Positions 7,537-57,844 of a DNA stretch of 64,000 bases are shown one piece after another. Position 1 is the first letter of the stretch. Each line of letters starts with the position of its first letter. The DNA comes from Escherichia coli (GTDB taxonomy: Bacteria; Pseudomonadota; Gammaproteobacteria; Enterobacterales; Enterobacteriaceae). Position numbers and translations under genes: made by a program. Location of the stretch: the NCBI RefSeq assembly GCF_011045215.1, contig NZ_CP049201.1. One strand, 5' to 3'. The notes beneath the pieces were generated by a model. That model searched no databases. It was not told where the DNA came from and was given only the letters and a program-made list of their open reading frames with translations.

Positions 7537-7647
7537 TCGTTGTAACCTGATTAACTGAGACTGACGGCAACGCCAAATTGCCTGATGCGTTGCGCTTATC
7601 AGGCCTACAAGTTGAATTGCAATTTATTGAATTCGCACATTTTTGTA

Positions 7648-17742: not shown

Positions 17743-17829
17743 GCCCGGATGGTGGAATCGGTAGACACAAGGGATTTAAAATCCCTCGGCGTTCGCGCTG
17801 TGCGGGTTCAAGTCCCGCTCCGGGTACCA
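17743..17829 (+). tRNA. leuZ: tRNA-Leu (anticodon TAA)
   Basis: GCCCGGATGGTGGAATCGGTAGACACAAGGGATTTAAAATCCC...GGGTTCAAGTCCCGCTCCGGGTACCA; long variable arm typical of tRNA-Leu; its 3' 55 nt are duplicated at 39473. Confidence 0.95.
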
Positions 17830-29484: not shown

Positions 29485-30084
29485 TTATGCTTGTTTACTC
29501 CTTGATTCCACTGGGGAAGCAGGCCACTCAATATCCGGTGCTCTTGATGTATCAACACGGTTCAGCAGCACTCGATACTTCTTCCATGCCACCAGTAACG
29601 ATGTTTCTTCCTCTGTTGCAATATTCAAATCTACGGCATCTTGAAGTGGCGAAATATGCTCACTGGCTACCTGCATGAGGCTGTTTTTTGTTTCTTCCGC
29701 CTCCCGTATCCGGAACACTTTTTCTGCTTCTGCATCTTTCACCCACGTTGTGCCGTTCCACTTCTGAAACTCCCCTTCCGGGGATAACCAGGTGACATTT
29801 TCCGGTAATGGACCGAGTTCAGAAATAAATAACGCGCCCCCTGATGCCACGTCATAAACCGTTTTACCACGATGATCTTCAACGAGATGCCAGGACGTCT
29901 TATCACTGTTGAAAATAGCCACGAAGCCAGCTGGAATATCTGGCGGAGAAATATCAGTACTATTTGCAGGTAGACCTGTATGAGGTGGAATGTATGCATC
30001 ACCTTCACCAATAAATTCATTGGTTCCGACCAGCAGATTATAAATTTTTATGGTTCGTGGTTGTTCACTCATTCTGAATGCCAT
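29485..30084 (-). CDS. tail fibre assembly chaperone (Tfa / P2 G-like)
   Basis: 199-aa ORF immediately downstream of the tail-fibre fragment; Tfa-like C-terminus (...[22 protein letters not shown]). Confidence 0.8.
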
Positions 30085-33627: not shown

Positions 33628-33929
33628 TTATTCAGGAAATAACGCCCGGATATTTCCGGCCATCTGACTGGTTATCTGTGCGGTTGATACTGGCTGTGAT
33701 GCGGGGCGTTCTGTCCTGGTTTGTGTCACTGATAACGCTTCATCATCAGCCCATGCAGCTAGTCGGTAAGCCTCTGCCGGATTCATTTTCAGAAGTGCCA
33801 GCCCGGCCAGAAAAGCCACACGTTGGCCGCTTTTGCGGGCTTCTGGTGTAAGGCTGTCCAGCCAGGCGCATGCTTCGCCTTCGTTCTTGACGGCGGCGGG
33901 CTTCAGATAGAAACTTATCCGTCTGGTTG
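33628..33929 (-). CDS. ParR/StbB-like partition adaptor protein
   Basis: From MTTPTRRISFYLKPAA...LDSLTPEARKSGQRVAFLAGLALL...NIRALFPE; resembles plasmid R1 ParR (RRTIAFKLNP...LDSIPQGERSRLNRAALTAGLAL...LRSLFPKE) from memory; lies directly downstream of the parM-like gene. Confidence 0.65.
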
Positions 33930-33943
33930 GTGTCGTCATTGGT

Positions 33944-34893
33944 TTACTCCTTGTCCATTGCGTACAGCCCATTAACCAGAGCAAACTGTGGCACCCCGTC
34001 CGCGATGAAAGTCGCATTAACTCCGCAGGCTTCGCGGATAGCGGGTGCCACAATCTCCGCCCCGCCACCGACAACCATCACCCGCCCGTAACCCGAAAAA
34101 ACCGCCAGCGCGCGGATCACGCGTTGTTTCAGTGTTTCTTCCTTTTCACGAATAACCGCCATCAGGCTGGCGTAATGCGCGTCATTGTGGATGTGTTGGC
34201 GCAACCAGGCTTCATCATGGCGATGTTCGATAATGGTATTGGCGATGTGGTGACTGGTACGCATACCGTTAGCGGCCATCACCGACAGCACGGCACCGGC
34301 CATCAGGGAGACGCCTACGTGTGGATCGCAAAACACCTGGCTGATACCTGCCAGTTGCCCCTGAACCTTTGCCACATCCAGCGTGGTTCCGCCTAAATCC
34401 ACAATCAGCAGGGATTCAAACGGACTCATGTCAGCCAGTGCTTTAAAGCCAGCCGGAATGGATTCAGGCATAACCCGCACGTTACGGATAGTGAATGCTT
34501 CGCCGTTCTGGTACTCCACCGGGCGCATAACGTTCGCTTTTTTGCGGTTGATGTTGGCCATGTCCGGCTGTGCGTTTGTGTCGAAATACTCGCTCAGTGG
34601 CAGGGTGACAACCACATCCACCTCCTGTGGCGTGATGCCTGATTTGACCAGCGTGTGATGAATGGCGATTACATTCACATCGCTGTACTGGTATTGCGTG
34701 TCGGTCGTCTGGACAAAGCGATCGCTGACCGGATCAAAACCATAGCGCACGCCATCAAGCATGTAGTTCGCGGGCTGCATGCCACCGAACGGCGCAGATC
34801 ATTCCGACTTGAAGCTGTTCGGGCTGATGGCGTTGCGGCGTTCGCCATTCTCAGTCCATGCCAGCTTGATGTTGGTGGAGCCGTCGTCGATAC
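33944..34893 (-). pseudogene. ParM/StbA-like actin-type ATPase with in-frame TGA nonsense codon
   Basis: MKICIDDGSTNIKLAWTENGERRNAISPNSFKSE-TGA(34799-34801)-SAPFGGMQPANY...; remainder matches ParM (VMPESIPAGF, IVDLGGTTLD, VMVVGGGAE); the stop replaces the Trp of R1 ParM KREWAVSFG. Confidence 0.75.
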
Positions 34894-34932
34894 AAATTTT
34901 CATGTCGCTTTTCCTTATGTTGATTAATTAAT

Positions 34933-35044
34933 CGTTTACGGGATTCTGAAATCCCGTTTTTGCCTGTTTTGTGTGCGCTTCATATATCGCGGCGCGTTTT
35001 TTGCTCATTTACGGGATTTGTGAATCCCGTTTCTGTCTGTTTTT
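34933..35044. repeat. two ~36-bp direct repeats, each with an internal dyad (acgggatt..aatcccgt), upstream of the parM-like gene
   Basis: tttacgggattctgaaatcccgtttttgcctgtttt (34933..34968) and tttacgggatttgtgaatcccgtttctgtctgtttt (35008..35044); candidate parC-like centromere/operator, or a remnant of a replication origin near the end of gene A. Confidence 0.5.
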
Positions 35045-36533
35045 TGTTTCCACTGGTCAGGCCACCCCGCAGCAGGTCTGCTTTGCGGCGGGCACGTTCA
35101 GTGGTTTCACTGATTCTCTGTGCGTGCTCTGCGTCGCGGATGGCGCGCAGCATGTCAGAAAGCACGGTAACGGGGGTTTTCATGGTGTTCTGGTCCTGCT
35201 GAAGTGTGGATGCCAGACGTGCGGCGGCTTCGAGGTCTGATGCCCCCAGCTGTTCCAGATAGCTGGCGACCGGGTTATGGCGGATCTCCGTGCTGCTTAC
35301 GCCGTGATTACGGCTCAGGCGCTGCCAGAGCTGCGTGATTCGGCTGTCCGGGCGGGTATCCGGTTTGCGTACAATTTCAAATCCCTGCGGTGCAATGATG
35401 CTGCCGTCAACGTACAGGCTGCCGCCCCGTAACAGGTGCTGCATCTGCTGTTCACCGATATGCATGCCGAGAGATTCGGCAGATTCCCGCCATTCTTTAG
35501 CGAGTAATTCGTGGTTATCAGGCAAAGGCCGCTGCTGTTTGCGGCTCTGTGTCCAGCTCTGCATTTCATCACTGCTGTTTTTTGCCTGTTTGTCACGCAG
35601 CGAACGCATCAGCGCCCGGCGTTCGTGCCGTTTCAGTGAGCGCACCCATTCATCCACATCAACGCCGTCAGGAAGCTGCGGCCACGGTGCTGGCCGTTCT
35701 TCCGGCTGTTCTGTCCCGTTGTTGTCCGTTTCCTGTACACGGGGACAGTTATTGCCACGAGTCCAAGGGGCGGCAGGGCCGCTCTGAAGGTCAAAACCAT
35801 TTTCGCGGGAGCTGTCTTCCGCTTCCGGTTTGCGTCTTACCAGCTTCCAGTTATCCGGATGCGTGCATACGCGGGAAGACTCCCCGATGAGCGGCGACCA
35901 GATCCCGTAAATCTGTACACTCTGCTCACCGTAATCGTTCAGTTCATCTGCGAGGTCGTAGGCGGTGCGAATCAGGTAGTCTTTGCGTGGAACAAGCACG
36001 CCACCCTGTTTTTCAATGTAGGTGGCAAAACACCCGGCATCAGCGGCAGCGAGTACCGCATCCATTGCGTCATCCTTCAGCCGTTGCGGGCCTTCCGGGT
36101 TGCGTGCCATCTGGCTGGCAAGGCGGCGCAGTTCACGCCACACCTGACGGGAGGGGATACCAAAGAACTGGAACTGGCGGACCCGGTGAAGGCGCGCCCA
36201 GCCGATGGCGCGTTCCACGCTCTCGGCCATTGATTTTCCGGTTTCGTGGTCAACGCGTGGCTTGCCCGTTTTCGGGTCGATGCCATCCACGGCGCGGCTG
36301 TCCAGGTTCTTTCCGATGTAGGTGGCGATGTAGCTGGTTGGCGTGCCTTTTGAGCCGTCGACGTACTCCGCCTTAAAACGCGGAGTTATGTCATCGCCCA
36401 GCTCGTGGCGGTCTTCCTGAATGGCAATATCGCAGACGTGGGACACGATGGTTTCAATCTCGTCCGGATGTGCAAAGACCATCATATGCCAGTGCACAGT
36501 GCCGTCATGGTGAGGCTCCAGCGGTGTATTCAC
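34980..36533 (-). pseudogene. replication initiation endonuclease gpA-like, N-terminally truncated
   Basis: 517-aa ORF begins within the region matching P2 A (LEPHHDGTVHWHMMVF vs P2 VEPHHDGTPHWHMMVF as recalled); the N-terminal part of a full-length A protein plus cox/B equivalents are missing. Confidence 0.7.
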
Positions 36534-36686
36534 TCAGCGAGGCACACCCGCCAGCAGTGTGATGCGCCAGCATTGCCGCAAATACGGAGGCCGGGGAGTC
36601 GTAATACGCCAGCAGTGATTCGCCATGCGGTGTCAGGCAGCGCAACGCCAGCCCGTGTGGTGTTAAGTCCACGCGGTAGCAGTCGT

Positions 36687-36836
36687 CTACTGTGAAATAA
36701 AGGGTGAGCGTTGTTCTTTAGCTGCCATTTCATCAATGACGGCTCGCTCTTCGAGGGACAGCCGAAGTGCCAGTCTTGGACCTGTGGCGGTGTTACGCGG
36801 AATGCGTGATCTGGTATCGTGAAGAACTTGTTTCAT
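36687..36836 (-). CDS. small ribbon-helix-helix-like ORF (49 aa), uncertain
   Basis: Manual translation MKQVLHDTRSRIPRNTATGPRLALRLSLEERAVIDEMAAKEQRSPFISQ: beta-strand/helix pattern of RHH proteins; lies between A fragment and the divergent repressor gene. Confidence 0.3.
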   Translation of the reverse strand: MKQVLHDTRSRIPRNTATGPRLALRLSLEERAVIDEMAAKEQRSPFISQ

Positions 36837-36911
36837 AGTGGTATATTGTGATCATCTAATAGCTCATGAAATCATTTTGGTATCAAAAAAGATACCTGTC
36901 AAGGTTTTTGT

Positions 36912-37316
36912 ATGAAAAATGATATTGGTCAGCGGTTGCGTGAGGAAAGGGAAAGATTGGGGCTTAGTCAAGTTGCTATGAGCGACATTGGTGGAGTCAA
37001 AAAGCTAACTCAGCTTAGATATGAGAAAGGAGATAGCTTTCCTGATGCTGCGTATTTGGCAGCGCTGTCTCGTTTTGGCCTTGATGTTCAGTATGTTGTG
37101 TTGGGAATTCACTCACCTGAAACTTATAACGATGATGAGCAGGAGTTGATTACTCGCTTTCGAGCAGCTTCGTTAGATGTAAAAAACGCGGTGATCGGGG
37201 CTTTAAAAGGTGCGGGCAGTGAAAAGGAAACTCAGCCATCAGGGCGTGAGTTAAATATTTCTGGTGGTAATAACCGTATCGCTGGTCGTGACTATAACGA
37301 AACTAAGGGTAGGTGA
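36912..37316 (+). CDS. XRE-family HTH repressor (P2 C-like immunity repressor) with C-terminal tail
   Basis: IGQRLREERERLGLSQVAMSDIGGVKKLTQLRYEKGDSFPDAAYLAALSRFGLD HTH; divergent from A, co-directional with int as for P2 C; C-terminal ...SGGNNRIAGRDYNE motif repeated in the next protein. Confidence 0.7.
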   Translation: MKNDIGQRLREERERLGLSQVAMSDIGGVKKLTQLRYEKGDSFPDAAYLAALSRFGLDVQYVVLGIHSPETYNDDEQELITRFRAASLDVKNAVIGALKGAGSEKETQPSGRELNISGGNNRIAGRDYNETKGR

Positions 37317-37331: not shown

Positions 37332-37982
37332 ATGGCCGTCAACTCAAACGGTTCAAACAATCGCGTTGCTGGGCGTGATTTTCACGAAAAGAATATTCAG
37401 ATAGAGCGATATGATGGTTCTCATACCGTCAATATCGCAATCCCTTCGAATAATGATGATGACGCTCGCCCTTTGCTTAAGGCACAGCGTAAGGAGCTAA
37501 ATAGCTTGGTTGCTGCTATTGCAGAAGCTAGCAATACTGAAGCGTTTATTATTTGGCAAAAAGTACATGCGGAGATTGGTGTAGCTGGTATTGATGATAT
37601 GACAATAAATCAATATAAAACAGCGGAGAGTTTTCTGCATGCAATGCTTGAGCGATGTAAAGATCATGATGCCTGTAAGACTCTTGTAAGTTTATTACTA
37701 CGTAACAGTGAAGACTGTGGACTTCGACAAAAACTTCTGCGGTATTGCCATATCAATTTCGGTACAGGACGTTTAAACGATCTTACTCGTTCTCAGTTAC
37801 AGTCTGCATTGTCGTGGTTAGAGCAACAATCGGTATCAAGCCACTCAGAGAATTCGACCTTACCAGAAGTTCGCCTTCGTGCTTCAGAATTAATCCGATT
37901 TTATCCAAAAGAAATAATATTCTTTATCTGCGTAGGGGTTTTGGTAGGCGGAGCCATTTCTAGGATGTTTTTTAATTTGTAA
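37332..37982 (+). CDS. tail-anchored membrane protein of unknown function (lysogeny-operon cargo)
   Basis: 216 aa; N-terminal SNGSNNRVAGRDFHE repeat shared with the upstream repressor; single C-terminal TM helix (IIFFICVGVLVGGAISRMFF); strong SD (GGAGGTGA) after three consecutive in-frame stops. Confidence 0.6.
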   Translation: MAVNSNGSNNRVAGRDFHEKNIQIERYDGSHTVNIAIPSNNDDDARPLLKAQRKELNSLVAAIAEASNTEAFIIWQKVHAEIGVAGIDDMTINQYKTAESFLHAMLERCKDHDACKTLVSLLLRNSEDCGLRQKLLRYCHINFGTGRLNDLTRSQLQSALSWLEQQSVSSHSENSTLPEVRLRASELIRFYPKEIIFFICVGVLVGGAISRMFFNL

Positions 37983-38364: not shown

Positions 38365-39366
38365 ATGTCGGTTCGTAAAACTCCATCAGGTAAATGGCTT
38401 TGCGAATGTTATCCCTACGGAGCATCGGGAAAACGCATTCGTAAACAGTTTGCGACAAAAAGTGAGGCGCTCTCTTATGAGCGCCGTTTAATGAATAGTA
38501 GAGTTGGAGACGAGTTTCAAGATGGTTCTGGTCCTCGTCTTTCTGAGTTGATTGCTCGTTGGTTTGAGATGTACGGAAAAACCTTGTCCTCTGGTGCAGA
38601 GCGCAAAGTCAAACTTGAGGCGATTTGTTCTAGGCTGGGAGATCCATTTGCTTCTCAGTTTGACAAAAATATGTTTGCTACTTATCGGGAAAGAAGGCTA
38701 TCAGGAGAATGGAATCCCAAGGGGAAGAAAAAACTTAGTGAAGCAACCGTTAATCGCGAGCAGTCATATCTACATGCTGTTTTTGCCGAACTGAAGCGCC
38801 TTGGGGAGTGGTCTGGTGAAAACCCCCTGACTGGAATTCGCAAGTTTCGTGAGGAAGAAAAGGAGCTGGCGTTTCTGTATGTAGATGAGATTGAACGCCT
38901 TTTGATTGCGTGTGATGATTCACGGAATAAAGATTTGGGGGTTGTTGTCCGTATTGGGCTTGCGACTGGTGCTCGGTGGAGTGAAGCAGAAGGATTAAAG
39001 CAATCTCAAGTACTGCCCGGTCGAATCACATTTGTTAAAACTAAAGGAAAGAAGAACCGCACTGTACCGATTTCACCTCAATTGCAGGCTATGCTTCCTA
39101 AAAAACGAGGAGCGCTATTTTCACCATGTTATGAGGCTTTTGACGCTGCAATTAAGAGAGCGAAGATAGAGCTCCCTGATGGGCAATTAACTCATGTGCT
39201 ACGTCACACGTTTGCTAGTCATTTTATGATGCGGGGCGGAAATATTCTTGTGTTGCAAAAAATACTGGGGCATAGCGATATAAAAATGACTATGCGTTAT
39301 GCGCATTTTGCTCCGGGTCATTTAGAGGCTGCTGTTGAATTAAACCCTTTTGACAATAGAGGGTAA
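38365..39366 (+). CDS. int: phage tyrosine integrase
   Basis: 333 aa; C-terminal catalytic region HVLRHTFASHFMMRGGNILVLQKILGHSDIKMTMRYAHF (R...HxxR...Y); ~110 bp from attR. Confidence 0.9.
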   Translation: MSVRKTPSGKWLCECYPYGASGKRIRKQFATKSEALSYERRLMNSRVGDEFQDGSGPRLSELIARWFEMYGKTLSSGAERKVKLEAICSRLGDPFASQFDKNMFATYRERRLSGEWNPKGKKKLSEATVNREQSYLHAVFAELKRLGEWSGENPLTGIRKFREEEKELAFLYVDEIERLLIACDDSRNKDLGVVVRIGLATGARWSEAEGLKQSQVLPGRITFVKTKGKKNRTVPISPQLQAMLPKKRGALFSPCYEAFDAAIKRAKIELPDGQLTHVLRHTFASHFMMRGGNILVLQKILGHSDIKMTMRYAHFAPGHLEAAVELNPFDNRG

Positions 39367-39472: not shown

Positions 39473-39596
39473 TTTAAAATCCCTCGGCGTTCGCGCTGTG
39501 CGGGTTCAAGTCCCGCTCCGGGTACCATGGGAAAGATAAGAATAAAATCAAAGCAATAAGCAGTGTCGTGAAACCACCTTCGGGTGGTTTTTTTGT
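39473..39596 (+). repeat. attR: second copy of the 124-bp repeat (partial leuZ 3' end 39473..39527 plus downstream terminator)
   Basis: Identical to 17775..17898. Confidence 0.85.
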
Positions 39597-57731: not shown

Positions 57732-57817
57732 TTCTCCCGATTTCCTCAATTGAAATAAACCCGATGATCTGCGCATCGGGTTTTTTATTTCAATTTCGCG
57801 GCGGGTGGCATCAGCAA

Positions 57818-57844
57818 TAAAGTTTCCCCCCTTCTTGCCGATAA
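57818..57844 (+). promoter_or_regulatory. sigma-28 promoter of the tar-tap-cheRBYZ operon
   Basis: TAAAGTTT (57818-57825) - 11 nt - GCCGATAA (57837-57844). Confidence 0.7.

Follow-up and report, generated by a model that had tools for sequence, protein, structure and literature searches.

A truncated Arc-like ribbon-helix-helix gene opposite the immunity repressor of a P2-like prophage remnant in Escherichia coli

The short open reading frame on the minus strand at positions 36687..36836 of the window, the stretch of 64,000 nucleotides of the Escherichia coli contig NZ_CP049201.1 that was analysed here, is best explained, with a probability of about 0.9, as a pseudogene fragment: the first 44 of the 68 codons of an Arc-like ribbon-helix-helix (RHH) early gene of a P2-like prophage, cut by a 2.07-kb deletion. 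In the history that we propose, an intact P2-like prophage of the Xuanwuvirus type at the leuZ/yecA site would have carried the RHH gene at the head of its early lytic operon, a 2.07-kb deletion at a microhomology would have fused codon 44 to out-of-frame sequence of a downstream gene, and a second deletion would have stripped gene A of its 433 N-terminal codons.

The ORF begins with ATG and encodes the 49 amino acids MKQVLHDTRSRIPRNTATGPRLALRLSLEERAVIDEMAAKEQRSPFISQ, in agreement with the location, strand and sequence given in the original prediction. On one side it is flanked by a truncated replication gene A, on the other by the XRE-type HTH repressor gene, which is intact. Since dozens of ORFs of 30–90 amino acids occur within the same 8 kb of the window, its length alone means little; the PHROG 3431 profile ("Arc-like repressor"), by contrast, matches it with an E-value of 3.3e-16, over profile positions 1–43 of 67 only, and judged by this match the sequence is far from chance. 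A Pfam search with the 49-residue fragment alone gave no match. Codons 1–44 encode a protein identical to the start of a 68-amino acid ORF, MKQVLHDTRSRIPRNTATGPRLALRLSLEERAVIDEMAAKEQRSSSNMARMIFLRGLELTQKEQNKSS, opened by the same start codon in E. coli 14EC001, whose prophage (locus L001) is the best relative of the remnant and served as the intact reference. These authentic codons cover the N-terminal basic arm, the β-strand LALRLS and helix A. Inspection of the junction at the base level revealed that codon 44 is followed by five foreign, out-of-frame codons (PFISQ) and a stop, the ORF ending exactly before helix B. The RHH character originally proposed for this mini-ORF is borne out by PHROG 3431, by Pfam RHH_5 and by structural comparisons described below, but the gene is not intact: measured against the RHH topology of strand, helix A and helix B over ~45 residues, it has PFISQ and a stop in place of helix B, and it does not reach a full-length match to the 67-position PHROG 3431 profile. 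By these comparisons the window copy is a fragment of a PHROG 3431 member.

The break is equally apparent at the DNA level. When 5,426 complete E. coli genomes were searched by megablast, other prophages at the same site proved homologous only up to a point inside the ORF, and in pairwise alignment the window is essentially identical to L001 through codon 44 and unrelated to it beyond. A blastn comparison of the window with L001 resolved three collinear blocks, pairing window 39500-36698 with L001 3501-6303 (99.6% identity), window 36706-36519 with L001 8368-8555 (99.5%) and window 36523-35080 with L001 9914-11357 (94.9%). The first deletion junction, J1 (36704..36706, minus strand; junction string AAAGAACAACGCTCACCCTTTATTTCACAGTAGACG), joins L001 up to ~6296 to L001 from ~8370 across a 2-bp CA microhomology, with the loss of ~2.07 kb. 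The lost segment contained the last 24 RHH codons, which include helix B, then the Cox-like gene and, directly after it, six more annotated early genes; DUF4761, DUF4754 and several further small ones are among the losses. The right end of J1 falls inside a phrog_3237 gene, of which an internal fragment with both start and end lost persists at 36521..36703 (minus strand; L001 8370-8555, 99.5% identity). The other end of this fragment is formed by J2 (36519..36523, ~36521, minus strand), a second, independent deletion at a TG microhomology, which removed ~1.36 kb (L001 8556-9913), so that the phrog_3237 gene lost its end and replication gene A its codons 1–433. What survives of the latter is a C-terminal fragment of a P2-type replication endonuclease A at 34980..36518 (minus strand), corresponding to residues 434–927 of 927 amino acids with 93.7% identity; the gene A ORF at 34980..36533 (minus strand) matches Pfam Phage_GPA (E-value of 2.6e-28) at profile positions 245–321 only. 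Because J1 is absent from the 5,426 complete E. coli genomes, an exact search for it in the GTDB species representatives returned 0 matches, and the exact 49-residue sequence is absent from a collection of ~15 billion proteins, the deletion is private or rare, and nothing points to selection acting on the truncated ORF.

The fragment lies within a larger prophage remnant. A direct repeat of at least 40 bp, derived from the 3' part of tRNA-Leu (leuZ), is present at 17775-17829 and 39473-39527, marking attL and attR of a remnant of ~21.7 kb that sits between the glyW-cysT-leuZ cluster and yecA and whose tail genes resemble those of Xuanwuvirus/P88-type P2-like phages. Downstream of the repressor, on the plus strand, follow a phrog_5825/Flk_N-like ORF, an ORF with DUF2511 and, at 38365..39366, a tyrosine integrase, then yecA and tyrP. 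As the A fragment is 94.9% identical to L001, compared to 99.6% for the lysogeny module, the remnant is a mosaic relative to the L001 prophage. Beyond gene A, as in Escherichia phage 520873, the minus strand at 33628-34903 encodes a ParM/StbA-like actin segregation protein and a partition protein (phrog_2515, Pfam Plasmid_stab_B); in the window, ParM appears to be split into a 34-amino acid N-terminal ORF (34799-34903) and a 278-amino acid ORF (33944-34780), which suggests a frameshift or a stop. A full-length match to Rfam IS009 (188 bits) was found inside the prophage region at 29543-29741 (minus strand), and elsewhere in the window the C0465 sRNA lies at 57751-57828 and a borderline match to ES036 at 7601-7642.

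The intact gene from which the fragment derives is well conserved. Its 68-amino acid product matches PHROG 3431 over positions 1–67 with an E-value of 9.8e-29. Compared with its counterparts in loci L003, L007 and L009 (76–78% protein and 74% DNA identity), the full-length gene has a dN/dS ratio of 0.08, with 31 of the 53 differences at third codon positions. In the two remaining sense frames the ratios are 1 or higher, and the stops in the antisense frames vary from one relative to the next. By this pattern of substitution, the full-length gene is real and under strong purifying selection. The original prediction had looked to conservation and a ribosome-binding site: the former is found for the full-length gene across lineages, the latter, in the form of a recognisable Shine-Dalgarno sequence before the RHH ATG, in none of them. 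Conserved relatives and RHH matches were both found, the opposite of the outcome that the prediction had named as speaking against it.

At least 1,000 contigs carry the exact 68-residue sequence, with E. coli O157:H7 represented among them, and UniRef names for the protein family are "Ribbon-helix-helix protein, CopG family" or "Arc family DNA-binding protein". The homologue in Escherichia phage 520873 (Peduoviridae, Xuanwuvirus) is annotated as "Arc-like repressor" (YP_009965283.1, gp05). This phage also shares its gene neighbours with the window, namely the integrase, DUF2511, phrog_5825 and HTH repressor genes on one side and gpA with the ParM/partition cargo on the other; the window copy matches the E. 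coli prophage protein exactly up to residue 44 but differs from the PHROG 3431 members in that it stops there with the five foreign residues and has lost its Cox-like neighbour. The PHROG 3431 family is already annotated in databases and experimentally uncharacterised: a literature search on P2-like RHH/Arc-like genes and Xuanwuvirus found no experimental study of it, and no RHH gene is mentioned by Nilsson & Haggard-Ljungquist (2011; PMC3448106).

The RefSeq/PGAP annotation of 14EC001 omits the 68-amino acid RHH gene and calls instead an antisense "hypothetical protein" of 45 amino acids (WP_001673482.1; L001 6179-6316, minus strand, equivalent to window ~36698-36822, plus strand). We rejected this ORF as a real gene, since it has extra stops in relatives and no synonymous excess. 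The call looks like a recurrent mis-annotation, and at least one RefSeq genome misses the RHH gene in favour of a non-conserved antisense ORF.

Assignment to the RHH fold was examined at the level of the family, for which an exhaustive HMMER search yielded 18 representative clusters; 17 members were aligned. Common to them are a basic arm at the N-terminus (H-D-x-R-S-R-x-P-R-G), a strand with the pattern x-L-R-L-S/T, helix A, and a helix B that opens with R-S-x-S-x-M-A-R-L-I-F-L-R-G-L and is present in all 17. The core region around R43/M48/A49 is nearly invariant across the family, and so are the residues predicted to face DNA, namely R25, S/T27 and those of the N-terminal arm. Pfam RHH_5 matches 14 of the 17 members (best E-value of 2.5e-6) and RHH_1 matches four, with further matches to NikA-like, RHH_7, Arc and, in ten members, DUF6290. 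The E. coli 68-residue protein alone remains below the Pfam threshold (E-value of 0.075), and a phmmer search with it against PDB sequences gave no match. Significant profile similarity to established RHH families was found at the family level: searched against the PDB, the family profile matches HP0222 (5.7e-4), Arc (0.017) and CopG (0.36), as well as CopG-family and DUF1778 antitoxins. The AlphaFold2 monomer model of the 68-residue protein (mean pLDDT of 83.7, and above 90 over approximately residues 21–60) consists of an extended segment followed by helices at residues 28–40 and 45–67, a layout that satisfies the strand, helix A and helix B topology. Almost all of its top Foldseek matches in the PDB are RHH proteins (CopA_SO, TacA, AtaR, KacA, ParG, Arc, ORF56, CopG and PutA), and superposition on CopA_SO, TacA and ORF56 gives an rmsd of 1.3–1.5 Å over 42–46 residues, the E-values being weak, as expected of a domain of this size.

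In the RHH fold, as known from the Arc and CopG structures, helix B forms half of the dimer core; RHH proteins are obligate homodimers that place their paired β-strands in the major groove of DNA. The truncated product, if made, would be unable to form an RHH dimer and is almost certainly without function. Three members of the family (P0016, P0021 and P0026) are natural tandem duplications of 120–153 amino acids with two RHH units per chain; these would effectively be single-chain dimers, consistent with a pairing of two units.

In contrast to the fragment, the control region next to it has been preserved in the window, with promoter, operator, conserved element and repressor gene all intact. 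The XRE-type HTH immunity repressor (134 amino acids; 36912..37316, plus strand; Pfam HTH_31/HTH_3) is divergent from the RHH ORF and differs from the L001 repressor by one residue. A consensus scan identified a putative early (Pe-like) sigma-70 promoter, TTGACA-17-CAAAAT, at 36874..36902 (minus strand), and within its spacer lies an inverted repeat, GGTATC-N6-GATACC (36879-36896), the presumed repressor operator. In diverged relatives, too, a similar promoter precedes the RHH ATG at this distance, its second hexamer ending 37–38 nt upstream, and each related phage has a different inverted repeat in the promoter spacer; in L009, where the RHH protein is the same, the different spacer repeat goes together with a repressor of unrelated sequence. 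We infer that the repeats follow the pattern expected of immunity-specific repressor operators. Because the promoter of the fragment carries the operator of a still-intact repressor, transcription into the fragment is probably repressed and the fragment silent. The C-terminal tail of the repressor, ISGGNNRIAGRDYNETKGR (37255-37316, plus strand), and the N-terminus of the next ORF, MAVNSNGSNNRVAGRDFHEK (37332-37400, plus strand), which is the start of the phrog_5825/Flk_N-like ORF, share the motif NNR(I/V)AGRD(Y/F)xE, and five of six other repressors examined, one of them with an unrelated HTH region, end in G-S-G-x-R-V-A-G-R/H-D-Y/F-x-E, that of L013 being the one that does not.

Directly abutting the RHH start codon is a conserved 20-bp element, GATGATCACAATATACCACT (also written GGATCACAATATAYCAYT), at 36837..36856 (minus strand), with counterparts at 6145-6164 in L001 and 4981-5000 in L010, L012 and L013. 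It contains an ATCAC-N5-AYCAY direct repeat and a GATC site, and its opposite strand reads as an extended -10-like sequence, TGGTATATT (36839-36847, plus strand), pointing toward the repressor gene. Between deep lineages the element is 75–90% identical, compared to 28–45% for the upstream intergenic DNA and 29–64% for the first 45 coding bases. It is a candidate for the promoter of the repressor gene (Pc), for an operator of the RHH protein, or for both, and could equally be just a promoter, a binding site of the Cox-like protein or a translation signal. In the annotated record of phage K139, exactly this relative position is taken by the lysogenic promoter and its mapped start, which lie on the strand opposite to the first lytic gene and a short way upstream of it. 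Three phages that lack the RHH gene, K139, vB_YenM_31.17 and vB_EcoM-813R9, were used to ask whether the element belongs to Cox; it is absent upstream of cox in all three, although with Cox proteins that are only ~45% identical this comparison is a weak one. An Rfam search over 36400-37100 found no RNA family.

These intact control sequences, within a region 99.6% identical to a working prophage, would also suit a reading in which the ORF is a functional mini-regulator, that is, a short RHH or arm-only DNA-binding peptide still controlling the switch of the remnant. Start codon, Pe-like promoter, operator and upstream element are all in place, and the N-terminal arm and β-strand, predicted to contact DNA, are retained; the 49-residue peptide may be made and may have residual activity, for example through its basic arm. 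However, what would be residues 45–67 in the model, helix B with its nearly invariant core region, is missing from a family in which every aligned member keeps it, the last five codons are out-of-frame junk from another gene, and the exact sequence was encountered in none of the collections searched. We consider such a mini-regulator very unlikely.

The original prediction had also raised the possibilities of an antitoxin remnant or of an alternative excisionase, and on these the gene order of the relatives is informative. The position was correctly recognised, where cox and B would be expected: in intact relatives that occupy this leuZ/yecA site (14EC001 and phage 520873), the 68-codon RHH gene is the first of the early operon, opposite the repressor. 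The order int, accessory genes, HTH repressor, divergent RHH gene (64–69 amino acids), Cox-like gene (67–70 amino acids) and eventually gpA is conserved, and its int/repressor/RHH/Cox-like/gpA core holds at 40–78% protein identity, including lineages in Salmonella and other hosts whose RHH proteins are only 40–50% identical. As for an antitoxin of a type II toxin-antitoxin pair on the prophage, the DNA-binding domains of the RHH antitoxins CopA_SO, TacA, AtaR and KacA are among the best structural neighbours, DUF6290 recurs among the family members, and NCBIfam RelB gives a weak match (E-value of 0.044), the only one in that collection and, at 14 bits against a 50-bit cutoff, below threshold. 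Yet no toxin gene follows the RHH gene in any intact relative examined, the next gene in every enterobacterial one being Cox-like, the protein has no C-terminal toxin-binding extension, and from E. coli to Burkholderia the gene keeps its place at the front of the early genes, facing the immunity repressor. With no toxin partner anywhere among the relatives, the antitoxin reading is largely refuted by synteny, and we regard it as highly improbable. The excisionase reading, under which the protein would have replaced Cox as the recombination directionality factor of the lineage, draws on the location of the RHH gene in the cox position next to the switch and on Burkholderia phage phi52237, in which no Cox-like gene was found beside the RHH gene and no cox or apl analogue was identified previously (PMC3448106). 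Against it, the E. coli, Salmonella and other enterobacterial relatives carry both genes, the Cox-like one directly downstream of the RHH gene, which rules out a replacement of the excisionase in the enterobacterial lineage. The 67-residue neighbour matches PHROG 575 (Cox/Apl) with an E-value of 1.2e-27 and is similar to Cox of HP2/S2, of K139 and of P2-like phages of Yersinia and Klebsiella, which lack the RHH gene, whereas the RHH ORF has no match to PHROG 575; its dissimilarity to P2 Cox had already been noted by eye. To our knowledge, no RHH-fold recombination directionality factor is known in P2-like phages, and a literature search for one found nothing; we hold this reading to be no more probable than the antitoxin. 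In phi52237 (L018 2450-3228), the RHH gene (gp22) is divergent from a homologous HTH repressor gene (gp23) and fills the cox slot itself, the repressor/RHH pair being kept as a module.

A pseudogene fragment therefore remains the preferred reading of the ORF, and a separate question is what its intact relatives do. We propose that the 68-residue protein would be a Cro-like early regulator that, as a dimer or tetramer on the 20-bp element, would shut off the face-to-face repressor promoter, leaving excision to the Cox-like protein; the element would then represent Pc, overlapping with an operator for a conserved protein. Given that its predicted DNA-facing residues are nearly invariant, the RHH protein is hypothesised to be the most likely binder of the element. 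We infer the Cro-like role and the operator assignment from position, from the habits of the family and from the conservation of the element. That the intact RHH protein is the Cro equivalent of a widespread subgroup of P2-like phages, in E. coli, Salmonella, other enterobacteria and Burkholderia, binding the 20-bp element and repressing the repressor promoter, is possible, though on balance doubtful.

Among known systems, phage P22 provides a parallel in fold with Arc and Mnt, the archetypes of phage RHH repressors. Arc (and Mnt) has the same order of N-terminal arm, β-strand, helix A and helix B in a small phage DNA-binding regulator, and the family profile aligns over Arc residues 2–49, although an E-value of 0.017 makes for no more than a marginal relationship in sequence. 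Within P22, Arc belongs to the immI region and controls the antirepressor, whereas the RHH gene heads a P2-like early operon, and operator binding by its product is only predicted. The parallel in position is provided by P2 Cox, 186 Apl and the Cox proteins of K139 and HP2, encoded by the first early gene of P2-like phages and acting as both switch repressor and excisionase. They occupy the same slot, first after the early promoter and face to face with the repressor promoter, but Cox and Apl are HTH-type proteins and the RHH gene product belongs to a different fold and family. As a Cox-like gene follows the RHH gene in intact relatives, the RHH lineage would have two small early proteins predicted to bind DNA, compared to one in P2.

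In the window itself, the ORF is an ordinary dead remnant and matters little there; with cox and half of gene A gone, the prophage remnant can no longer excise or replicate. The intact family is mildly interesting: in many P2-like prophages it supplies the first early gene, which is conserved, under strong selection and tied to a 20-bp element more conserved than the surrounding sequence. If the proposed role is correct, the RHH and Cox-like proteins would divide between them what P2 Cox does alone as switch repressor and excisionase, and the window would hold a dead copy of an uncharacterised switch component. Such a role for the RHH family would refine the model of the P2/186 lysis-lysogeny switch for this subgroup of phages.
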